Assembly: GCA_004211595.1 (NCBI GenBank)
Contig: SEDO01000008.1
Location: 41,835 to 105,834, forward strand
Length of the DNA stretch: 64,000 nt
Source of the DNA: Pedobacter sp.
Lineage (GTDB): Bacteria; Bacteroidota; Bacteroidia; Sphingobacteriales; Sphingobacteriaceae
Direction of reading: 5' to 3'
Positions within the stretch are counted from its first letter, which is position 1. Each line of letters starts with the position of its first letter. The position numbers were made by a program, and so were the translations under genes. This document shows positions 38,952 through 56,155 of the stretch, in pieces. A model generated the notes under the pieces. The model searched no databases, was not told where the DNA came from, and saw only the letters and a list, made by a program, of their open reading frames with translations.

Positions 38952-39518
38952 ATGGGGAAAGCAACGTTTACAATAGAAGATTTATTGCCAGGCTGTAAAG
39001 CCGGTAAACGGGAGGCGCAAGAAATGCTTTATAGAGCAACCGCTTCCAAAATGATGGCTGTTTGTATGCGCTATGCTAAAGATCAAATGGAAGCAGAGGA
39101 TGTTTTACAAGTAGCCTATATAAAAATATTTCAAAAGGTATCGGAATATAGAGGCGAAGGTTCCTTTGAAGGTTGGATTCGTAGAATAGTGGTTAATACA
39201 GCGATTGAAAGCTATCGTAAGAATTTGAGAATGTTAAATGTAGTAAATATTGAGGATGCCCCAGAAGTAGCAGCTACTTCTGCAGATTACAGTAGTTTAG
39301 GCATGAAAGATTTGTTACGCATCATTCAAAAACTTGCTGATGGATATAGAATGGTATTTAATATGTATGTAATTGAAGGCTACTCCCATAAAGAAATAGC
39401 CGCTACATTAGGCATCACAGAAGGTGCGAGTAAATCCCAATTATCAAGAGCAAGAGCAATATTGCAACAAGAAATTATTAAAATGGAGAGCTATCAATAT
39501 GGTACCAATGTCGGATAA
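38952..39518 (+). CDS. ECF-type RNA polymerase sigma-70 factor
   Basis: Region 2 (EDVLQVAYIKIF..., GSFEGWIRRIVVNTAIESYR) and region 4 HTH (GYSHKEIAATLGITEGASKSQLSRAR). The ATG at 38952 is preferred over the GTG at 38904. Confidence 0.87.
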   Translation: MGKATFTIEDLLPGCKAGKREAQEMLYRATASKMMAVCMRYAKDQMEAEDVLQVAYIKIFQKVSEYRGEGSFEGWIRRIVVNTAIESYRKNLRMLNVVNIEDAPEVAATSADYSSLGMKDLLRIIQKLADGYRMVFNMYVIEGYSHKEIAATLGITEGASKSQLSRARAILQQEIIKMESYQYGTNVG

Positions 39519-40290
39519 AGAATTAGATAATTTGTTTAAAAGCAAATTTGAGGATGCAGAATTTGCACCTTCCGAGGCCCTATGGGGAAAAATTGAAAAG
39601 CAGTTGGAAAAACCTAAAAAGCGCACCTACCCCATATTTTGGATGGCAGCTGCCAGTGTTACCCTGACTGTGGGAAGTTTCTTTATGTTGGAGAAAACAG
39701 ATAAAATGCAACTCTATGCCGAAACCCAAAATGTGAAAAGGATAAAAGAGATCGTTTCAAATGTAGAAGAGCCAGTAAAATATAATAGTTCACCAATGCA
39801 AGCTCCTGACGAAATGGACGAAACTACTACAAAAGTTACTCCAGTGGTTTTAGCTAAGCAAAGCTCAACATCTGCTACGATTGATAAAACGAATGCTAAA
39901 AGAGCAGGTTTAACGGAAGCTTTAAATGCTGAACCAACCATGCAAATAGCGAAAAATGAAAATATTTCAAATAGCGTGCAACCAATCGAAAACACTCGCC
40001 GTCTAGATAATACAAACCCAGAGGTAATTAATAATAATTCAAGACCTACGCAATTGGGATTAACCGATGAACAACCTAATGCTATTAAAACAGAATTTGC
40101 TTTAGCTGCTCATGATGCCGACGGGGAGGATAGAAAGGTTATTAAAAATGTGGGAGACTTAGTCAATTTTGTAGTTGATAAAGTAGATAAGAGAGACCAA
40201 AAGTTTTTAAAGTTTTCTCCGGATGATGATGATAGCATGCGATTAGTAGGAATTAACATCGGCCTGCTCAAATGGAATAAAAAGAAATAG
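39499..40290 (+). CDS. Putative anti-sigma/membrane protein partnered with the ECF sigma
   Basis: Short cytoplasmic N-terminus, one TM helix (IFWMAAASVTLTVGSFFML) and a low-complexity exterior. Its start (39499 or 39508) overlaps the sigma gene end. Confidence 0.5.
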   Translation: MVPMSDKELDNLFKSKFEDAEFAPSEALWGKIEKQLEKPKKRTYPIFWMAAASVTLTVGSFFMLEKTDKMQLYAETQNVKRIKEIVSNVEEPVKYNSSPMQAPDEMDETTTKVTPVVLAKQSSTSATIDKTNAKRAGLTEALNAEPTMQIAKNENISNSVQPIENTRRLDNTNPEVINNNSRPTQLGLTDEQPNAIKTEFALAAHDADGEDRKVIKNVGDLVNFVVDKVDKRDQKFLKFSPDDDDSMRLVGINIGLLKWNKKK

Positions 40291-40320: not shown

Positions 40321-40378
40321 AATTAACACACCTAAACCTAATTAACACACCTAAACCTAATTAACACACAATAAACCA
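40321..40378. repeat. 19-bp direct tandem repeat x3 (two perfect copies, third degenerate)
   Basis: AATTAACACACCTAAACCT occurs at 40321-40339 and 40340-40358, followed by AATTAACACACAATAAACC. The repeat ends 16 nt before the OMP gene ATG. Confidence 0.9.
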
Positions 40379-40393
40379 ATAATAATTAAGAAG

Positions 40394-41188
40394 ATGAAAG
40401 CGCAAATATTTAAATCAACCCTAGTTTTAGCAGTTAGTCTATTAAGTTTTTCAGCTGTTAAAGCTCAAGATGCCTATGTAAATGATAAACCGGTTAAGGA
40501 GGAATCTTCAACAATTCGTATCCGATTTAGTTCTAATAATGATACGGCCAGTTCAGAATTTAAGCCAAAATTTGTAGGGGGTATTTCCTTTACGCGCTTT
40601 GACTTAGGGTTCACAAAATTAGTAGACAATGGGTCTTATGATTTATCAGCAACCAACAACTTTTTAAAATATCAAGGTGGAAAATCTAGTCACTTATCCT
40701 TTGATGTAGTAGATTTCGGTTACCGTTTTTCACAAAACTTTAAAGTCTATGTTGCGGGAGGATTTGATTGGACATTAATTCGTTTGAAAAACAATATAAC
40801 GATGGATAAAAATAGCCCAACCTTAAGTTATACCCAAGAAACTATTGATTTTAAGAAGAACAGATTTTCTAGTAGCTATTTACATGTTCCTTTAAACTTT
40901 GAGTTTAGAACAAACAAAGATAAAAAAGGAAATAGATTCTATTTTGTCGTAGGTCCTGAAGTGGCCTTCCTATTAAATGGAAAAGTTAAACAAGTAAGTA
41001 ATGAACATGGAAAAGTGAAATTCAAAGATGATTATAATTTTTCAACTCTTAGATATGGAGCCAGTGCACGTATCGGATGGAAAGATGTAGCAGCTTTTGT
41101 AAAAGTATACAACTCAGATATGTTTAATACAGACGCTCAAAAAGGTTTAAAAAATATGGCTTTTGGCCTAACCTTCGGAATAAACTAA
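40394..41188 (+). CDS. Outer-membrane beta-barrel protein (PorT/OprF-N-like small barrel)
   Basis: Signal peptide (...SAVKAQD), alternating beta-strand pattern, and C-terminal ...AFGLTFGIN. Confidence 0.7.
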   Translation: MKAQIFKSTLVLAVSLLSFSAVKAQDAYVNDKPVKEESSTIRIRFSSNNDTASSEFKPKFVGGISFTRFDLGFTKLVDNGSYDLSATNNFLKYQGGKSSHLSFDVVDFGYRFSQNFKVYVAGGFDWTLIRLKNNITMDKNSPTLSYTQETIDFKKNRFSSSYLHVPLNFEFRTNKDKKGNRFYFVVGPEVAFLLNGKVKQVSNEHGKVKFKDDYNFSTLRYGASARIGWKDVAAFVKVYNSDMFNTDAQKGLKNMAFGLTFGIN

Positions 41189-44035: not shown

Positions 44036-45124
44036 TTATGATTTAGGGTTAGTAAATTCATTAAATATCATTTCACCCATTGCAGAGGTTCCTAAAACCT
44101 TTGAAGTGGGCGTTTTGGGAGAAGCAATATCGATGGTTCGATAACCTGCCTTTAAAACTTTTTTAATAGTTTCTGTAATGGCATTGGCGTGTTTATAAAG
44201 CCCAAAACTGTGGCTTAATAATAATCCTGCAGATAGGATAGAAGCTAGTGGATTTGCCTTATTTTTACCCGCTATATCATGAGCCGAACCATGGATAGGT
44301 TCATAGAACCCGGGGCCATCGCCTAAAGAGGCAGAGGCAAGCATCCCCATAGAACCTGCTATTTGGGAAGCTTCATCTGTTAAAATGTCTCCGAATAAAT
44401 TTGCCGTTAATACGACATCAAATTGGGTAGGGTTTTTTATCAATTGCATAGCCGCATTATCCACAAACATATGCTCACAACGTACATTTGGATATTGCTT
44501 GGCTACTTCCTGTACAGTTCTTCGCCATAAACGGGAACTTTCTAAGACATTAGCCTTATCCACAGAACACACATAGCCCTTTCGGTTTTGAGCAGCTTGA
44601 AAGGCTTTATGGGCCACTCGTTCAATTTCATAACGCGAATAAATCATCAGATCAGAAGCCGTCAAACCATCTGCTGATAACTGTTTTTCTCCGAAATACA
44701 CATCTCCTGTGAGTTCTCTAAAAAATAAAATATCGGTGCCTTTTAATATTTCCTCTTTGAGTGAGCTTGCCCCTAATAATTCATCAAATAATTGAATAGG
44801 ACGCAGATTGGCATATAAACCTAAGGCTTTCCGAATGGATAACAAACCTTGTTCAGGTCGTACTTTTAAATTAGGATCTGCATCATATTTCGCATGCCCA
44901 ATTGCCCCAAATAATATAGCATCTGCTTGCTTTGCCTTTTGGAGTGTTTGTTCAGGTAAGGGGCTTCCTGTAGCTTCGATGGCAGCATGTCCCATCAAGG
45001 CCTCTTGAAAATGCCAATCATACCCATTCAAATTGGCAATCTTTTCTAATATGGCCTTTCCCCATAAAGTCACTTCTGGACCAATACCATCCCCCGGTAT
45101 AATTAAAATATGTTTAGTAGACAT
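44036..45124 (-). CDS. leuB: 3-isopropylmalate dehydrogenase
   Basis: [14 protein letters not shown]-terminus and the [12 protein letters not shown] signature. The ATG at 45124 is preferred over the TTG at 45139. Confidence 0.93.
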
Positions 45125-45707
45125 AAGTTTCTTTCTCAAAGGCTTCGATTAACTCCTGATGGCTTAAAATAAAATCAATGTCATCAAAGCCATTTAATAA
45201 ACATGATTTTTTATAAGGATTTATTTCAAAGTTTTCTGTTTCTCCTGTGGCTATTAAACTTATCTGTTGGGTTTCTAAATTTATAGCTACGATAGTTTCT
45301 GGATTCTTTTCTACAGCCCTGAATAATTTAGCTAAAAAACCTTCCGAAACCTGAACGGGTAATAAACCATTATTCAGCGCATTACCTTTGAATATATCCG
45401 CAAAAAAGCTACTTACCACCACCTCAAAACCAGCGTCTTGAATAGCCCAGGCGGCATGTTCTCTACTCGATCCACAGCCAAAGTTTTTGCCTGCCAATAA
45501 TGTCTTTCCTTCATAACGCGGGTTATTGAGTACAAAATCAAGTTTAGGATTACCTTGGGCATCATATCGCCAATCACAAAATAAATTTTCACCAAATCCT
45601 TCTCGGGTAGTAGCTTTTAAAAAGCGAGCAGGAATAATCTGATCGGTATCAATATTCTCAACGTGTATAGGAACTAGCCTAGAGCTTAAGGATTTAAACT
45701 TTTTCAT
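45114..45707 (-). CDS. leuD: 3-isopropylmalate dehydratase small subunit
   Basis: Aconitase swivel domain with the [13 protein letters not shown] motif. Confidence 0.92.
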
Positions 45708-49659: not shown

Positions 49660-49905
49660 TTAAGCTATTACAGCTTCTGCAAGCACAATAATTTTATCAT
49701 CTAAAACTTCAACAACTCCACCTTTGATTTTAAAGGTTTCTTCTCCTTTACTGTTTTGAACCTTCAAAGGTCCATCTTCTAAGGTAGAAATAATAGGGGC
49801 GTGGCCTTTTAATATTTGAAAAGAACCTAAAGTACCCGGTACAGTTACCGCGCTAACTTCGCCTTCGAAAACCTTTTTATCTGGAGTTAATATTTCTAAG
49901 TTCAT
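49660..49905 (-). CDS. atpC: F0F1 ATP synthase epsilon subunit (short form)
   Basis: 81-aa N-terminal beta-sandwich domain (LEILTP...VSAVTVPGTLGSFQILKGHAP), directly downstream of atpD. Confidence 0.9.
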   Translation of the reverse strand: MNLEILTPDKKVFEGEVSAVTVPGTLGSFQILKGHAPIISTLEDGPLKVQNSKGEETFKIKGGVVEVLDDKIIVLAEAVIA

Positions 49906-49943
49906 GCTTTAAATATATATTACCGGAGCTAAGCTCCTGTAAA

Positions 49944-51464
<1,521 letters not shown>

Positions 51465-51864
51465 TTATATAAATCAAAATGTTACGGTCTTTTTATAAAA
51501 CCTACAATTTCGGTTTGCAAAGTTAAGATTTTTAAGTGTAATTTTTAAATTTAATGCTAAAGTTTTTTTAAAGTATTTTTTGACTGTTAAAATCTATGTA
51601 ACTATTTCTTCTTAGGAGCGCTCTTTGCATCCTATTCCTGCTCGATTTCAAGAAGATTTAAATTCAATTTGAGCCCAATTTTTTCCTCAATTGTTCGGCT
51701 ATTGTTCGACTATTGTTCGGCAGTTGTTCGGAAAGTTACTATACTAACTATACTATAACACTAGTCTTCCTTCGGGTAACCTTCGGAAAGGGTTCGTCTG
51801 ATGTTCAGCTGTAATTCAGAAGCTTTTCGAAACGCTTTCGAAAAATACCCGAACGTTTTCCAAA

Positions 51865-51897
51865 GAATTTCCGAAGATTTTCCGAAGCTTTTCCGAA
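51865..51897. repeat. Sub-block: three tandem 11-bp units G(A/C)(A/T)TTTCCGAA
   Basis: TTTCCGAAG at 51868-51876, 51879-51887 and 51890-51898, which is the exact reverse complement of CTTCGGAAA at 51781-51789. Confidence 0.9.
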
Positions 51898-51952
51898 GTT
51901 TCCCGGTATTCTTCCTGAATTTTTCCCGAATTTAGACATAATTTAGACATAA

Positions 51953-52007
51953 GAAAGTCCCTATAAGGTCCCTATAAGGTCTCTATAAGGTCCCTATAAG
52001 GTCCCTT
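51953..52007. repeat. Sub-block: five tandem 11-bp units (T/G)AA(G/A)GTCCCTA
   Basis: GTCCCTATAAG starts at 51957, 51968, 51979 (GTCTC variant), 51990 and 52001 (truncated). Confidence 0.92.
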
Positions 52008-52184
52008 TGATGTCAGGGTAAAAATGGATGATTTAAAAAGGCATTTAATGAAGGAGTTGCCTGTAGGAATATGGAATAAAAATCTAAAATAAGTATTTTG
52101 GGAGACTATTTAAAACCTTATTTTTAGACCTCCTAAGGATAGAAAAGCCCCGTGGAAAAAAACGAGTAAGCAGCTAATAAAAAG

Positions 52185-53096
52185 ATGAAAAAAATAGTAG
52201 TGACGGGAAGTAATGGGTTATTGGGTCAAAAAATAACTGAAAGGGTTTTAAAGCTTAATGATTTCGAATTGATTGCAACAGCAAAAGGCCCCAATCGATT
52301 TCCGCAAACAGCAGGGTATGTGTATCAGGAGATGGATATATGCGATGTTGCACAAATGCAAGCGGTGCTGAAGCACTATATGCCCGATGCAGTAATTCAT
52401 ACAGCAGCCATGACCAATGTGGATGTCTGTGAAAGTAGCCAAGAAGAGGCTTATAACTTAAATGTAAAGGCCACCGCAGATTTAGCAAAAATTTGTACGG
52501 AATTGGATATACAATTAGTGCATTTATCAACCGATTTTATTTTCGATGGTGCTGAGGGCCCCTATACAGAAGAAGCTTCCCCAAATCCCTTGAGTTATTA
52601 TGGCAAAACAAAACTCTGGGCTGAACAAGCAGTTCAAAATAATGCTACCAAATGGACGATTCTTCGAACAATTATCGTCTATGGGATTGTAGCAGATATG
52701 AGTCGGAGTAATATTATTTTATGGGCCAAGGGAGCTTTAGAGCAAGGTCAAAAAATAAATGTAGTGAATGATCAATGGCGGATGCCTACATTAGCCGAAG
52801 ACCTCGCCGAAATTTGTTTGCTTGCGGTGCAAAAAGAAGCCCAAGGTGTGTTTAATGCCAGCGGCCAAGATATGATGCGGATAGTGGATATCGTTTATGC
52901 AGTGGCAGATTTTTGGCAATTAGATAAGTCCTTAATTACCGAGATTTCGGCAGAATCCTTAAATCAAGCGGCTAAACGGCCCATAAAAACAGGTTTTGAT
53001 TTGAGTAAGAGCCGTCAGGACTTAGGCTATCAACCCCATACGTTTATGCAGGGACTGGCTATTGTAGATGCACAGTTGAAAACCAGTATTATATGA
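52185..53096 (+). CDS. RmlD-like NAD(P)-dependent sugar-nucleotide reductase (SDR)
   Basis: N-terminal VVTGSNGLLG Rossmann motif and the YGKTK catalytic motif. The length and layout match dTDP-4-dehydrorhamnose reductase-type proteins. Confidence 0.75.
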   Translation: MKKIVVTGSNGLLGQKITERVLKLNDFELIATAKGPNRFPQTAGYVYQEMDICDVAQMQAVLKHYMPDAVIHTAAMTNVDVCESSQEEAYNLNVKATADLAKICTELDIQLVHLSTDFIFDGAEGPYTEEASPNPLSYYGKTKLWAEQAVQNNATKWTILRTIIVYGIVADMSRSNIILWAKGALEQGQKINVVNDQWRMPTLAEDLAEICLLAVQKEAQGVFNASGQDMMRIVDIVYAVADFWQLDKSLITEISAESLNQAAKRPIKTGFDLSKSRQDLGYQPHTFMQGLAIVDAQLKTSII

Positions 53097-54811
53097 AACA
53101 TCTCTTTCTTATTCTCTTTTTGCTTTGCAGGTTAAATGCGTGGTCGCAAAAAGGGGAATTTGATTTGAGATTCAGGCATATAGATTCCTTAATTTTTAAC
53201 CAGAAGTATGAACTTGTTCAGCTTAAACTGGATAGTTTGAAGGCTTATTTAGCCAATAACAAGCATTTAAGTAGCTATAAGGAGATCGGATTAGAGATTA
53301 GATATCGGGAAGTTTTGATGATGGATAATCTAAATCAAACGCCTTCAAAGATGCTTCCGTCGATGTTTAAGCTGTTGGATGAGTCAGAAAGCTTAGCATT
53401 ACCGCAAATAACTTTTCGGGTTTATCTGCTAATTGCACTTTGCTACGAGAAGACAAGTTTTGTGCCTCAGGATTATGAGTTAGGAAAGCAATATTTAGAC
53501 AAGGCATACGCGGTATTTAAAAAGCACAATTTGGATGAAATGTACAGTGCTTATTGTATACGAGTTGCCTCTTATTACAGATATGCGAGAAATGTAGATT
53601 CATTGGTTTATTTCGCCAATCAGGCAAGTAAATATGCCAGGAAGTACAATCAGCCTAAAGAGCTGGAAGACTCCTATACTTTGTTGATTTCGGCCTCAAA
53701 TGCAAAACAAGATTATAAATCAGCACTTAGGTATTCCAATGAATTATTAAGTATTCGATTAAAACACCAGAATGAATTAGGGCCAAGCTACTATAATGTG
53801 GCTAATGCTTATCTTTTGATGAAAGATTATCCCAAAGCGCTTATATATATGGAATCTGCTTACTTGTATTTCGATCAGATGGGGCCGTTATATAAACCAA
53901 TTTTCAGTGAAAAAAAGTCTAATATTTACGAGGGAATGGGGAAAATGGATTCTGCGCTTCATTATTATAAGTTGTTTTCGGAGTATTCCCAACAATCTAT
54001 TGAAGAACAGAATCTGGTTAAAACCAGAGAACTCGAGGAGAAATATCAAAACGATAAAAAGGAGCAATCTATAAAGAACAGAGAGCGGTTGTTGCTTTTA
54101 GTTGGATGTTTGATGACCGCTATTTTTGTAGCCTGGTTACTCGTAGTTAGAAAGAACAGGCAGATTAGTGAGAAGAATAAAATTATTAGTTCACAGTTAC
54201 TGGAACTAACTAAAACCTTAGAACAAAAGCAAGTCCTCCTATCCGAATTGCAGCATCGGGTAAAAAATAATTTGCAACATGTAATCAGTATTCTGGAAAT
54301 TCAGAAGGAAAGTGTTGATTTTAATAATATCGACGAGTTAATTCGGGGAAACCAAAACAGAATTCATTCCATGGCTTTGCTGCATAAAAAGCTAAGCGTG
54401 TCTGAAAATGTGAATGAGGTTGATTTGGAAAAATATATTAGCGAACTGGCGAAGTTGGTCAAAGACTCTTATGCTTCAGACAAAAAGCGAATCCAATTAG
54501 AGGTGAAATGTGAAGTAGAAAAGATATCTTTGGAAAAGGCACTTCCTGTAGGCTTGATTATTACCGAGCTGATTAGTAATAGCATGAAGCACGCTTTTAA
54601 AAGGCGCAGTACTGGAAGGATTCAGGTTGTGATTACTGAAAGTGGGTCCGGAAAAGCGTTATTCTATGCTGATAGCGGGGTTGGGTTTGACTTCAATGCG
54701 TTATATGAAAAGGGCTTAGGGCAAGAAATTATAAATGGTTTGATTGATCAATTGGGTGAAAAAGTAGAGTCAAGCGGGGATAATGGCTTTGAATTGAGGG
54801 TAGGATTTTAA
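53093..54811 (+). CDS. TPR-repeat sensor histidine kinase (HisKA_2/HWE-like phospho-acceptor), orphan
   Basis: Signal peptide, about 300 aa of TPR-like repeats, one TM helix (LLLLVGCLMTAIFVAWLLVV), H-box LQHRVKNNLQ, N-box ELISNSMKHAF and G-box DSGVGF. An ATGA overlap links it to the upstream gene. Confidence 0.82.
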   Translation: MKHLFLILFLLCRLNAWSQKGEFDLRFRHIDSLIFNQKYELVQLKLDSLKAYLANNKHLSSYKEIGLEIRYREVLMMDNLNQTPSKMLPSMFKLLDESESLALPQITFRVYLLIALCYEKTSFVPQDYELGKQYLDKAYAVFKKHNLDEMYSAYCIRVASYYRYARNVDSLVYFANQASKYARKYNQPKELEDSYTLLISASNAKQDYKSALRYSNELLSIRLKHQNELGPSYYNVANAYLLMKDYPKALIYMESAYLYFDQMGPLYKPIFSEKKSNIYEGMGKMDSALHYYKLFSEYSQQSIEEQNLVKTRELEEKYQNDKKEQSIKNRERLLLLVGCLMTAIFVAWLLVVRKNRQISEKNKIISSQLLELTKTLEQKQVLLSELQHRVKNNLQHVISILEIQKESVDFNNIDELIRGNQNRIHSMALLHKKLSVSENVNEVDLEKYISELAKLVKDSYASDKKRIQLEVKCEVEKISLEKALPVGLIITELISNSMKHAFKRRSTGRIQVVITESGSGKALFYADSGVGFDFNALYEKGLGQEIINGLIDQLGEKVESSGDNGFELRVGF

Positions 54812-54890
54812 GCAGACTTTGAGATTTTGATTATTTGTTTTGTTTTGCTATTTTAAAGCTAAAATTAATTTAAAAATCAAAAATAGACTT

Positions 54891-55733
54891 ATGGATTCAA
54901 CAAGAAGAAATTTTTTAAAATCAGCATCAATTCTTACAATTTGTGTTATTGGCTTCAAAGATGTATATGCTTTAGCTGGAGGAAAGAAAAAGTTGCTAGG
55001 AAGTTCTTCAGTTCCAATTAGGAGATCGCCAGAACTTGAAGCTTTTTTGTCTCAATTGTTTGGTGTACCAGTTACCATCACTAAAGTAGGGGGGAATGAT
55101 GTTTTAAATATTCCTGGCTATGACCCCATAGTTTTAGGTATTCAACTAGACACAGTAGTCATTACAGGCACAGGTAAAGTTATTAGTACAATAGATAATA
55201 GTGAACTTTATTCTGGCCCAAGTATGTGGGCTCCAGAATTAGTTGCTGTATTTGGAGGTATAGCTATGAATATGCCATCGTCTGCAATCTCTGGAGCTTA
55301 TAATATAGCAACACATAATATAACCCCAGTAGCTAGTGGGTGGGATGGAATTTCTACATTTGATGCAGTATCTACAGCAGTTACAAGCATGGGTATAGCT
55401 ATGAGTTATACTGATATGGTTACATATGCAACAACCGCTCAAACTTATAAGGCTGTTTCTAGTGCTGGTACATTTATAGGCTACATAGGGATTGGAGGAA
55501 ACTTATTAGAAATTTTTGATGATAATCCAGATACATCGGCAGAGAGATTGGAGGACATGGCTCAAATAATACTAGCAGCAATAATTCTTACAACTCCGGT
55601 AGGTATGGTAGGTGCAATTGCTGGAGGGATCTTACTGGGAGCTTGGGAAATTTGGGAAGTTAAAAGAAATATACCTAACAAAAAAAATGCACCAGTAATA
55701 AGAAGGTTACCAGGAAATAGGAAACAATCATGA
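54891..55733 (+). CDS. Hypothetical Tat-signal protein with Gly/Ala/Ser/Thr-rich hydrophobic C-terminal half
   Basis: The ATG at 54891 gives MDSTRRNFLKSASIL, a consensus twin-arginine motif. The C-terminal region contains a glycine-zipper-like VGMVGAIAGGILLGAW followed by a basic tail. Composition is AT-rich relative to neighbours. Confidence 0.6.
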   Translation: MDSTRRNFLKSASILTICVIGFKDVYALAGGKKKLLGSSSVPIRRSPELEAFLSQLFGVPVTITKVGGNDVLNIPGYDPIVLGIQLDTVVITGTGKVISTIDNSELYSGPSMWAPELVAVFGGIAMNMPSSAISGAYNIATHNITPVASGWDGISTFDAVSTAVTSMGIAMSYTDMVTYATTAQTYKAVSSAGTFIGYIGIGGNLLEIFDDNPDTSAERLEDMAQIILAAIILTTPVGMVGAIAGGILLGAWEIWEVKRNIPNKKNAPVIRRLPGNRKQS

Positions 55734-56155
55734 GATTTTTTTTAAAAAACCTATATATATATTGGTACATAACTTTTTTTGAGATTAAGAAACGCGAAGA
55801 GTATAATAAGATTTTAAATAAAAAGGAGCTAGATACTGAGGATTATAATAATGATGGTCATATTAGTTTTGTAGCTGTAATTATGATATCATTTTTCTTT
55901 TTAGTTTTATTGTTAGACTTATTTTTTATCTATAGGACGTTAACTGATACTCCACTTTCCATTAATAAGGGTTTAGTATATTTAATTTGTACGCTGGTAT
56001 TAATTTTTTCATATATATTGTTGTTCAAAGTCCTTAAAATTGAAAAGTTAAATTACGTTCTGCCAGAATATCAGCCTAGTAAAAAGTCTTTAGATATAGC
56101 TGTTTATATCTATTGGTTTGTTATAATAGTTGGAATGGCTATAGGATTTTCTTAA
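55730..56155 (+). CDS. Hypothetical small polytopic membrane protein
   Basis: 141 aa with about 3-4 TM helices and very AT-rich codons. Its ATG overlaps the upstream stop (ATGA at 55730-55733). Confidence 0.5.
   Translation: MRFFLKNLYIYWYITFFEIKKREEYNKILNKKELDTEDYNNDGHISFVAVIMISFFFLVLLLDLFFIYRTLTDTPLSINKGLVYLICTLVLIFSYILLFKVLKIEKLNYVLPEYQPSKKSLDIAVYIYWFVIIVGMAIGFS

Follow-up and report, generated by a model that had tools for sequence, protein, structure and literature searches.

The divergent atpD/RmlD-like locus

The window, by which we mean the whole 64-kb stretch of Pedobacter DNA analysed here, contains the gene for the F1 beta subunit of ATP synthase (atpD) and the gene for an RmlD-like SDR reductase in divergent orientation, separated by a gap of 738 bp. 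The RmlD-like protein scores slightly under the cut-off of TIGR01214, and the stop codon of its gene overlaps the start of a HisKA_2/TPR kinase gene (53093-54811); a 3.1-kb kinase cassette is present at the locus in this genome. Other neighbours include a Na/H exchanger and two unknown membrane/secreted-type proteins, and homology to contig L082 of a sister genome also places ORFs matching AhpC, adk and obg nearby. The features of the locus are:

49660-49905: atpC, after atpD
49944-51446, minus strand: atpD (Pfam ATP-synt_ab, E = 3e-63; 91-95% amino acid identity to Pedobacter atpD)
51447-51590: ancestral divergent promoter block, aligning to positions 1-131/141 of the ~150-bp intergenic regions of relatives L002-L011
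51558-51579: 11-bp tandem duplication TAAAGTTTTTT / TAAAGTATTTT, identified by TRF and by comparison with L082
51571-51617, plus strand: left copy of a ~48-bp imperfect direct repeat, from local alignment with 52091-52139
51634-51688: weakly periodic lead-in of five rows starting ATT(T/C), in phase with the array (identity to other blocks 0.19-0.38)
51689-51732: block A, four units nnTTGTTCG(G/A)n, the outer left (TTCG) arm (within-block identity 0.80)
51733-51765: 33-bp segment foreign to the 11-bp family, rows 5-7 (TRF period 9)
51766-51820: block B, five units with TTCGG, TTCG or TTCAG cores, the inner left arm (identity to block A 0.58-0.59)
51821-51842: hinge, two units with the palindromic core TTTCGAAA (inverted repeat)
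51843-51930: right (CGAA) arm, eight units of T-tract plus YCCGAA(G), forming inverted-repeat pairs with the left arm
51931-51952: block E, two identical copies of TTTAGACATAA (TRF 100% match)
51953-52007: block F, five copies of TAAGGTCCCTA (TRF 94% match, score 93)
52008-52184, plus strand: unique 177-bp tail up to the RmlD-like ATG, alignable to no relative
52185-53096, plus strand: RmlD-like SDR reductase gene (Pfam RmlD_sub_bind, E = 9e-66)

A motif scan finds the sole exact Bacteroidota -7 box of the gap, TAACTTTG, on the minus strand at 51518-51525, 72 nt ahead of the atpD ATG. The promoter block is 89.8% identical to L082 up to 51570; homology stops at the TAAAGTTTTTT / TAAAGTATTTT duplication, which is single-copy in the sister genome and lies 1 base out of phase with the array register. 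Within the tail lie a 22-codon ORF at 52024-52092 and, at 52091-52139, the second (right) copy of the direct repeat; a near-consensus -7 box, TATTTTTAG, is found there too, at 52119. Homology of tail positions 52020-52184 to the RmlD-proximal promoter of the relatives looks plausible by eye and was rejected, the alignment scores being at null level.

Periodicity and block structure of the array

The original prediction, made from this DNA alone, had described an 11-bp array at 51689-52007 in the 738-bp gap, and both the sequence and the gap length are as it gave them. Comparison with shuffled sequences establishes the periodicity as significant: identity at lag 11 across the array is 0.64, whereas dinucleotide shuffles give 0.26 (z = 15.1); harmonics appear at lags 22 (z = 10.3), 33 (z = 6.8) and 44 (z = 5.2), and lag 7 is depleted (z = -3.8). 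In sliding windows of 150 nt, for which the window-wide background has a mean of 0.27 and a standard deviation of 0.05, the lag-11 signal peaks at 0.75 at position 51846, the top value for lags 5 to 30 in the whole 64-kb window. TRF recovers the array in pieces only.

The prediction had further read the array as 29 rows held in one register. The common register stands: column information summed over the 15 distinct units amounts to 6.43 bits in the observed phase and to 2.31 +/- 0.52 bits when the blocks are rotated at random, a value of 6.43 being reached in 0 of 20,000 rotations (p < 5e-5). Rows 5-7, however, are not 11-bp units; they contain a 9-bp repeat, ACTATACTA x2, at 51738-51755, and their identity to the other rows is at chance level (0.14-0.29 against 0.26). 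That this unrelated 33-bp segment keeps the register would be a 1-in-11 coincidence under pure neutrality, an observation that speaks against a minisatellite. Column 8 carries C in 21 of the 29 rows, as had been noted, and most rows have a YC dinucleotide at columns 7-8. Phased T-tracts run through rows 13-22, and rows 20-21 show 1-nt internal shifts. The array was also correctly described as crossed by no ORF of 60 aa or more; three 44-aa ORFs do cross it. No second array of the same unit motifs occurs within the 64-kb window, in which isolated single 8-mer copies are found, and no tandem pair of any array unit was recovered in the fetched loci at biologically convincing identity.

Identity within blocks is 0.80-1.0 for A, D, E and F and 0.42-0.73 for other row groups. 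Between blocks it ranges from 0.14 to 0.67 overall and from 0.34 to 0.67 for A through D2 (chance 0.26), and it is mostly higher for neighbours, with the exception that A-D (0.52) exceeds B-D (0.37). Block D has an internal identity of 0.88 and an identity of 0.61 to block C, and the right arm includes three near-identical TTTTCCGAAG units at 51865-51897. Rows 23-29, comprising blocks E and F, show weak kinship to the rest (0.15-0.45). Block F is the most homogeneous of all and is therefore probably the newest expansion. The internal dyad holds as first reported: CTTCGGAAA at 51781 is the reverse complement of the three copies of TTTCCGAAG, and two TTTCGAAA palindromes lie at 51825-51832 and 51836-51843. 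The inverted-repeat pairs between the left and right arms are 73-82% complementary.

Distribution of the array in related genomes

Synteny comparison shows that the array is missing from relatives that keep the same flanking genes. In ten Pedobacter/Sphingobacteriaceae relatives the atpD/RmlD-like gene order is retained with gaps of 149-240 bp that lack any lag-11 signal, and in four further relatives wider gaps are filled with extra ORFs and not with repeats. The sister genome (L082/L083) has flanks that are 87.5-89.8% identical to those of the window, and the 189 bp that it carries at the array position are unalignable to the window. These include a ~100-bp mini-array with a period of ~10.5 bp (lag 11, z = 3.5; lag 21, z = 4.8), which is present in two assemblies and has its TTCG units on the left and its CGAA units on the right, as in the window array. 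The unit number thus differs between the two genomes, with ~9 units in the sister versus ~30 in the window. An exact-protein look-up of atpD for closer strains returned no record. Arrays of short period are common in this group and occur in neighbouring intergenic regions of several relatives: heptamer arrays lie near atpD in L014 and L015 and near the RmlD-like gene in L011, and L011 additionally has an 11-bp CCGAAS array of 4-6 units.

The source of the sequence is a metagenome-assembled genome, and the one other assembly of the strain breaks inside the array: among the Logan contigs of run SRR6998484, L001 starts inside block F and L085 ends inside atpD, short of the array. This might suggest that the array is an assembly artefact, which we find scarcely credible. 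L001, an independent assembly, matches the window without a difference over 51966-52184, which covers the array's final 42 nt and the whole 177-bp tail; the blocks differ enough to provide unique k-mer paths; a chimeric join would not hold one register over 13 blocks; and a related tract lies at the same site in the two assemblies of the sister genome.

Tests for constraint on the units and the possibility of protein binding

Information content is unevenly spread over the unit, with 0.84-1.0 bit at columns 6-8 and 11 and 0.43 bit or less at columns 1-5. Mismatches between adjacent rows are nevertheless evenly distributed over the 11 columns (chi-square p = 0.48), and a neutral star-tree simulation at matched divergence yields a column heterogeneity at least as great as that observed in 37-58% of runs. 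As neutral simulation reproduces the column conservation, selection on the core is unsupported. The information in the core, together with the identical core and order of the sister mini-array, could reflect constraint, the tests being low-powered.

These features bear on the possibility that the array works as a curved-DNA module, or as a set of phased protein-binding sites, on the divergent atpDC and RmlD-like/kinase promoters. An oligomerising or bent-DNA-preferring nucleoid protein would then occupy YYCG(R)A cores on one helix face, with opposite orientations in the two arms, and would set the activity of the promoters or insulate them. The exact 11-bp phasing of ~30 units, the contiguity of the best-kept columns (6-8), the phased T-tracts of rows 13-22, the TTCG and CGAA arms on either side of the two palindromes and the same core and order in the sister genome are all consistent with such a module. 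Precedents are known in R1 parC/ParR (PMC2241845), Streptomyces PhoP (PMC2275107) and phage initiator iterons, and conserved-core 11-bp arrays are maintained in Bacteroidota (L137, L201 and L126, see below). Several observations argue against it. The array is missing in all other species with the same promoters, and the sister has ~9 units that cannot be aligned; column conservation is within the neutral expectation; rows 5-7 and blocks E and F lack the core; the sole exact -7 box lies outside the array; and control scans show no enrichment of the 11-bp period or the TTCG core. No gene for a DNA-binding protein, and hence no candidate binder, was found among all the neighbours with Pfam and NCBIfam. 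Taken together, these observations make a binding module unlikely.

More specific candidates of this kind were examined and rejected. The absence of par, rep or RHH genes that had been stated for the vicinity is confirmed among the neighbours by Pfam and NCBIfam. A ParR/parC-type partition centromere is not supported, as the neighbours encode neither an RHH ParR nor an actin-like ParM, the ~30 units are heterogeneous, chromosomal synteny is conserved across Pedobacter, and BLAST detects no plasmid or phage homology of the array. Replication-origin iterons are likewise rejected: no initiator gene lies near the array, a search of 50000-53500 that allowed up to one mismatch gave no DnaA box, and GC skew does not turn at the locus. 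An operator array of the OmpR/PhoB type does not fit either, because the relatives keep the promoter block without the repeats.

Possible mobile-element and RNA readings

The array might alternatively be the expanded remnant of a MITE-like palindromic element, with subterminal 11-bp repeats and two inverted arms, that was inserted and then degenerated. Two-arm hairpin elements with an 11-nt period do occur in Bacteroidota contigs (L142 versus L195, L158 versus L183, L094 versus L175), where the element is common to the contigs and the flanks differ. They fold strongly (z = -5 to -9.4), in contrast to the window array (z = -2.8) and L082 (z = -2.0). Terminal inverted repeats are found on some elements in other organisms (L087, L127); at our locus they are absent, the left flank scoring 18 against the reverse complement of the right flank with a null of 17.8 +/- 2.5. 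The ~48-bp direct repeat that brackets the array segment, which includes a 9-bp exact repeat, could represent a target-site duplication; its score of 29 versus 18.5 +/- 3.2 in shuffles (p about 0.007) is moderately significant and was found post hoc. Extra ORFs in relatives and the kinase cassette here mark the locus as an insertion hot spot, and BrickBuilt (PMC4596501) provides a Bacteroidota precedent for a MITE that contains a minisatellite. Given the weak folding, and as neither the 64-kb window nor the fetched loci contain these units in a second array, we regard this origin as rather unlikely.

A different possibility is that the array acts as RNA. It would be either a 5' leader of ~600 nt, with transcription starting in the ancestral promoter region of the RmlD-like gene (around 51574), or a separate ncRNA; its YC/UUCG/CCGAAG motifs would bind a protein (Rho, Csp- or S1-like), or it would form a long imperfect hairpin, with the RmlD-like/kinase operon as the proposed target of control. 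All of the ancestral intergenic sequence that the relatives carry, as far as ~10-20 nt ahead of their start codon, maps to the left of the array, which accordingly sits at the position of a 5' leader; the YC dinucleotides and the partial complementarity of the two arms are also compatible with this reading. Folding relative to shuffles is, however, modest (z = -2.1 on the plus strand and -3.2 on the minus strand), the array is missing in relatives, and the plus strand has no exact -7 box. The near-consensus box at 52119, 3' of the array, could be the real promoter. An Rfam E-value scan of 51300-52300 gave no credible match, with none above about 25 bits, and a scan of ten other array loci at the gathering thresholds gave no match. 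With the weak fold z-scores this argues against a structured ncRNA, and we consider an RNA role very improbable.

Arrays of similar periodicity elsewhere

Scans for four successive TTCGR-N6 units returned at least 120 stretches in a metagenome collection and at least 120 in a viral collection. Many of the matches have a conserved core, variable spacers, Bacteroidota contexts and the TTCG-then-CGAA order; under strict criteria this arm order prevails by 7 against 2, which is not significant. The matches are heterogeneous and include phage origin iterons, a mitochondrial genome (L150) and TIR-bearing transposon-like elements (L087, L127). In viral contigs, six consecutive units were found in 30 stretches for TTCGR and in 41, 55 and 56 for scrambled cores, and the TTCGR core gave 22 stretches at period 10 and 18 at period 13. 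Neither the core nor the period is thus enriched in these controls, and a special class of TTCG-core 11-bp arrays was rejected. The core TGTTCGG is common to block A and the phage contigs L241, L312 and L238; we judged this sharing to be due to chance and not to kinship with phage iterons, as the loci had been selected on TTCGR.

Some arrays of similar style elsewhere are clearly maintained, an observation that weighs against reading such arrays simply as minisatellites. Upstream of TlpA-like/SusC/SusD genes, L137, L201 and L126 share one order of 11 units in which the CGAA core is invariant while the spacers vary. Together with the phage iterons inside initiator genes, these arrays indicate that the 11-bp geometry can be functional. 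A wider proposal would unite the window array, the sister mini-array and the two-arm hairpin arrays (L094, L104, L124, L142/L195, L158/L183, L171, L178) in one undescribed, dispersed Bacteroidota family, built of 11-nt units with a (S)TTCG(R) core in a TTCG arm followed by a CGAA arm. The family would be recognised by a host protein and would influence promoters such as those of atpD, gyrA and groES. As 11 bp also corresponds to one turn of A-form RNA, the protein might read either phased DNA sites on one face or a periodically marked RNA hairpin. We consider this proposal, in all its parts, quite improbable.

Comparison with described repeat systems

The array matches no named element, in agreement with the original prediction, and our literature search found no description of an 11-bp array in Bacteroidota. 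With bacterial intergenic minisatellites or VNTRs it shares head-to-tail units of constant length, blocks of near-identical neighbouring units, rapid gain and loss between close lineages, a non-coding nature and assemblies that break at the locus. It differs from them in being unusually long and degenerate, with ~30 units in 6-7 variant families, and in possessing a palindromic core that gives it left/right polarity. A further parallel is provided by the long multi-family arrays of heptamer direct repeats (TAACTGA and related) in intergenic regions of Bacteroidetes (MacGregor 2015, PMC4679880). These lie in expanded gaps, close relatives with the same gene neighbourhood having short gaps without repeats, and contigs often end in them. 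The two kinds of array have in common the phylum, side-by-side repeat families and an expanded gap absent from relatives, whereas the window array has a period of 11 and not 7, unrelated motifs and an internal dyad.

The BrickBuilt MITE of Porphyromonas gingivalis consists of a 23-nt minisatellite of a single family between leader and tail subunits, with small inverted-repeat ends, and is present in 19 copies in strain ATCC 33277 (PMC4596501). Like the window array it is a Bacteroidota intergenic element with tandem short units, unique flanking segments and adjoining promoters; the window array differs in its 11-bp unit, its many variants, and its lack of inverted ends and of a second copy in the 64-kb window and fetched loci.

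Among the systems with an 11-bp period, the iteron unit of plasmid R1 parC is 11 bp long. Two sets of five iterons flank the parMR promoter, beside parM and parR (PMC2241845). Direct repeats in two separate sets are common to parC and the window array, which is however chromosomal, lacks a parM, parR or RHH gene, and consists of ~30 heterogeneous units in opposed arms. The OmpR/PhoB-type regulator PhoP of Streptomyces uses 11-nt direct repeat units as operators (PMC2275107). Such operators, and the phage iterons of DnaD-like/O-like initiator genes, share with the array the 11-bp period, a 5-7-bp core and a variable spacer, but they comprise 2-9 units within or beside the cognate gene or a conserved promoter. 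The window array, in contrast, has no adjacent initiator or regulator gene and is unconserved at orthologous promoters.

Origin of the array

We propose that the array is a lineage-specific, degenerate and expanding minisatellite, a passive spacer with fast turnover, and assign this reading a probability of roughly 0.6. It fits best because the array is absent from relatives, the sister has ~9 unalignable units, the blocks are amplified, and no column-specific constraint beyond the neutral expectation is seen. Of the alternatives offered in the original prediction, a decaying minisatellite is thus the best fit, and the others drew no support from our tests. The similarity of neighbouring blocks fits growth by unit-length slippage, and their shared register is as common descent predicts.

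The seed was probably a short run of 11-bp units built around a palindromic core of the TTCGAA type. It would have arisen, or been inserted, in the interval that separates the ancestral promoter block from the RmlD-like start codon, before the present lineage and its sister diverged. Growth may then have proceeded in whole-unit steps via replication slippage or unequal recombination; as each duplication would be a multiple of 11 bp, all descendants would stay in one register. Point mutations presumably created the variants, namely left-hand TTCGG and right-hand TCCGAA, followed by TTTAGACATAA and TAAGGTCCCTA, and local re-amplification of some of these would have produced the present blocks. 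The array would thereby place the RmlD-like/kinase operon about 590 bp further from the ancestral promoter block and have no dedicated function, although its roughly ten phased T-tracts may bend DNA. The original prediction had taken the exact 11-bp phasing as suggestive of a filament-forming binder. Whole-unit duplication around a palindromic TTCGAA core would lead one to expect both the register and the polarity, so that neither is evidence for such a protein.

Implications

A protein-binding or curved-DNA role of the array is unsupported and unlikely. Were this minority reading true, Bacteroidota would possess an undescribed phased system of DNA or RNA binding that lies beside core housekeeping promoters. 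If the array is only a minisatellite, strains of this Pedobacter lineage could be typed with it as a hypervariable marker. The array would also be a clean case of unit-length slippage giving rise to a seemingly designed register and polarity, and a warning not to infer a binding protein from phase-locked repeats until controls have been run.

Organization of the array and its genomic setting

The array of 11-bp units (window 51689-52007) occupies the divergent gap between the first two of the following features:

49660-51446, minus strand, atpD/atpC, left flank of the array gap
52185-53096, plus strand, RmlD-like SDR gene, right flank of the array gap
Overlapping the stop of the RmlD-like gene, HisKA_2/TPR kinase gene, next downstream

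Gene calls return the 738 bp originally given for this gap, the sequence of 51689-52007 reads as first reported, and an ORF scan agrees that every ORF spanning the array is shorter than 60 aa. The array is real and statistically striking: the proposed 11-bp periodicity is borne out by a lag-11 identity of 0.64 where dinucleotide-preserving shuffles give 0.26 (z = 15.1); autocorrelation harmonics appear at lags 22, 33 and 44. In a 150-nt sliding frame, the lag-11 peak (0.75 at 51846) exceeds every other value at lags 5-30 across the 64 kb. The register was assessed by cutting the array into 15 distinct units in 13 blocks and rotating each block at random; none of 20,000 rotations reached the observed in-phase column information (6.43 bits versus 2.31 +/- 0.52 under rotation), and the sub-families of the array therefore lie in one common register. 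The original description of 29 rows in a single register needs some correction: rows 5-7 consist of a duplicated 9-bp sequence with no relation to the remaining rows, blocks E (rows 23-24) and F (rows 25-29) are only weakly related to the others, and there are 1-nt shifts in rows 20-21. Column 8 is indeed C in 21 of the 29 rows, and the reverse-complement pairs and two TTTCGAAA palindromes are present as described. A faint pattern in phase with the array reaches left to ~51634.

Identity within blocks is high (A 0.80, D 0.88, E 1.0, F 0.85), and between blocks A through D2, that is, from the left TTCG arm through the hinge to the right CGAA arm, it ranges from 0.34 to 0.67 (chance 0.26). Similarity mostly drops the farther apart two blocks lie, though not always: A-D (0.52), for one, exceeds B-D (0.37). 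This pattern is what duplication of whole units combined with point mutations would leave. The core is the palindrome TTCGAA in columns 6-11, from which the left-arm variants (TTCGG) differ by G at column 10 and the right-arm variants (TCCGAA) by C at column 7. These mirror-image transitions, each amplified locally, would have generated the polarity of the arms; whole-unit slippage around a palindromic core would thus account for both the exact register and the polarity.

Phyletic distribution and turnover

Ten relatives with the divergent atpD/RmlD-like arrangement have gaps of 149-240 bp in which no lag-11 signal is found; the original prediction had named such array-free relatives with the same flanks as telling against it. 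Four other relatives have a larger gap containing an extra ORF, which marks the site as prone to insertion. Tandem-repeat finder detected no comparable non-coding array in the atpD surroundings of other Bacteroidota, 766 kb in all; atpD itself is here 91-95% identical to those of Pedobacter species, and the RmlD-like protein is identical to one annotated in a Pedobacter sp. MAG. As the full intergenic sequence of the relatives aligns to window 51447-51580/51590, the extra ~590 bp sits between this ancestral promoter block and the RmlD-like ATG. A motif scan places the only exact Bacteroidota -7 box of the gap, TAACTTTG, in the same block, where it serves atpD. An 11-bp tandem duplication, TAAAGTTTTTT / TAAAGTATTTT (51558-51579), lies inside this otherwise conserved block, one base off the main array phase, and is single-copy in the sister genome described below. 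The 177-bp tail 3' of the array aligns to none of the sequences compared. A 22-codon ORF, MDDLKRHLMKELPVGIWNKNLK (52024-52092), begins 17 nt past the last unit and has no counterpart in the sister genome.

In a collection of 5.8 billion proteins the only close relative is P0002 (82% protein identity), from a sister genome represented by contig L082 (GCA_964592575.1) and, assembled independently, by L083. Both match the window at 89.8% identity through atpD to 51570 and at 87.5% across the ORFs that follow the RmlD-like gene and that in L082 have AhpC, adk and obg Pfam domains, whereas the RmlD-like gene itself is unusually diverged (76% nucleotide identity versus 88-90% in the flanks). The sister gap is 313 bp, of which 189 bp stand in for 614 bp of the window and cannot be aligned with them. 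This stretch comprises ~9 units repeating every ~10.5 bp (z = 3.5 at lag 11 and 4.8 at lag 21); those on the left are of TTCG type, those on the right (G/C)CGAA(G). Thus, the common ancestor probably already had a short tract of this type, whose turnover since then has far outpaced that of the flanks. An assembly artefact is very improbable for an array whose type recurs in the sister genome.

The 3.1-kb kinase cassette (53093-56155) is absent from L082/L083; in L082, AhpC, adk and obg come immediately after the RmlD-like gene. The cassette encodes the HisKA_2/TPR kinase, a membrane protein of 141 aa, and a 297-aa protein that matches no family and has a twin-arginine-like signal.

Constraint, RNA folding and associated machinery

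Mismatches between adjacent rows are spread evenly across columns (chi-square p = 0.48), column information peaks in columns 6-8 and 11, and neutral star-tree simulations of matched divergence give heterogeneity at least as great as observed in 37-58% of runs. Hence the array sequence gives no sign of column-specific constraint. As originally noted, no par or rep gene is nearby, and the neighbors include no recognizable DNA-binding, partition or replication protein; DnaA boxes or a GC-skew turn at the array locus, and plasmid or phage homology of the array, were likewise not found. Although the common register would suit a phased binding or curved-DNA module, these results leave such a module unlikely. 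The array folds only slightly better than shuffles (z = -2.1, -3.2, -2.8) and matches no Rfam family; we consider a transcribed leader or ncRNA improbable.

Elsewhere in the window, two perfect DnaA-box 9-mers, TTATCCACA, occur on the plus strand at 44457 and 44556, 99 bp apart, inside an ORF on the minus strand (44036-45139). The short gap that separates ORF 39424-40290 from ORF 40394-41188 contains 2.6 copies of a perfect tandem repeat of 19 bp, AATTAACACACCTAAACCT (40321-40369).

Comparable arrays in other genomes

Scanning metagenome and viral collections for four TTCGR cores spaced 11 bp apart gave at least 120 stretches in each, and almost all of the matches listed are true periodic arrays. 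Some combine conserved cores, variable spacers and many units, and neighbor genes typical of Bacteroidota (SusC/SusD, hybrid two-component system, T9SS cargo, gyrA, groES). On three metagenome contigs (L137, 3277-3397; L201; L126), orthologous 11-unit arrays of CGAA[G/C]-N5-T, each with a GC-rich hairpin after it, are located ~65 nt upstream of a TlpA-like gene; SusC-like and SusD-like genes come next in L137. Unit order and copy number are kept in the three samples and substitutions fall nearly all in spacers; these arrays look as if maintained by selection.

A second type is shared by contigs with otherwise unrelated flanks.

Two-arm hairpin elements of 11-nt units with inverted arms
L142 11657-11862 versus L195 5941-6157
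L158 11685-11800 versus L183 3596-3711

They fold strongly (z = -5 to -9.4) and are, judging from these comparisons, dispersed small repeat elements in Bacteroidota-like contigs. The window array might be a degenerated mobile palindromic element of some kind: an imperfect direct repeat of ~48 bp (51571-51617 and 52091-52139), which begins with an exactly repeated 9-mer, AAGTATTTT, flanks the array segment on both sides and may record a past duplication or insertion (alignment score 29 versus 18.5 +/- 3.2 in shuffles; p ~0.007, spotted post hoc). Terminal inverted repeats around the array and a second array of these units within the window were not found, and both the window array and the L082 tract are poor hairpins beside the two-arm elements; this origin is unlikely, slightly more so than a binding module. 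A two-arm 11-bp array with a core other than TTCG, ATAACCCATAT x5 then ATATGGGTTAT x4, occurs in Chitinophaga filiformis (L045, 1098-1205) directly upstream of a small ORF, with a second array, AGAGAACTAGC x4, 550 bp away.

The arrays of phage contigs lie within DnaD-like/O-like initiator genes, and are therefore origin iterons. Three of them (L241, 2677-2725; L312, 11664-11712; L238, 6333-6381) have five 11-bp iterons nnnTGTTCGGn, placed as in lambda-type origins. Their 7-bp core is that of window block A, a match judged coincidental, as the loci were selected on TTCGR. The idea of a single special TTCG 11-bp class including the window array was likewise given up: in the viral collection six-unit controls gave 30 stretches for TTCGR versus 41, 55 and 56 for scrambled cores, the TTCGR core at periods 10 and 13 gave 22 and 18, the match set also holds a mitochondrial genome and TIR-bearing transposon-like elements, TTCG-then-CGAA arm order prevails by only 7 to 2 under strict criteria, and the window and L082 tracts are poor hairpins.

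Precedents and nature of the array

Short-period arrays are common in neighboring gaps of related genomes. Two Sphingobacteriales MAGs (L014, ~225-290; L015, ~195-265) have two adjoining 7-bp families upstream of atpD, TGGTTCT-like x4-5 then ACTCAAT x5, and Pedobacter aquatilis (L011) has CTTTCTA x5-6 beside the RmlD-like gene (~2893-2935). The latter also carries an intergenic 11-bp array of 4-6 units with variable spacers (1934-1990), ~1 kb beyond the RmlD-like/AhpC genes, whose CCGAA(G/C) core is that of the window right arm. Another Bacteroidota analogue is the Porphyromonas gingivalis BrickBuilt element, a MITE with a 23-nt minisatellite inside it (PMC4596501), although the inverted ends and multiple copies that define BrickBuilt were not seen for the window array.

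Taken together, lineage specificity, fast turnover, the lack of detectable constraint and of associated machinery lead us to regard the array, with a probability of about 60%, as a degenerate, expanding minisatellite. A precedent in Bacteroidetes is provided by MacGregor 2015 (PMC4679880), which describes long arrays of TAACTGA together with other heptamers in Gramella and Aequorivita, where the intergenic regions holding them are expanded, shorter, repeat-free gaps in close relatives with the same neighborhood, and Elizabethkingia contigs that end in heptamer repeats. The window array is a case of this same phenomenon, with a unit of 11 bp.
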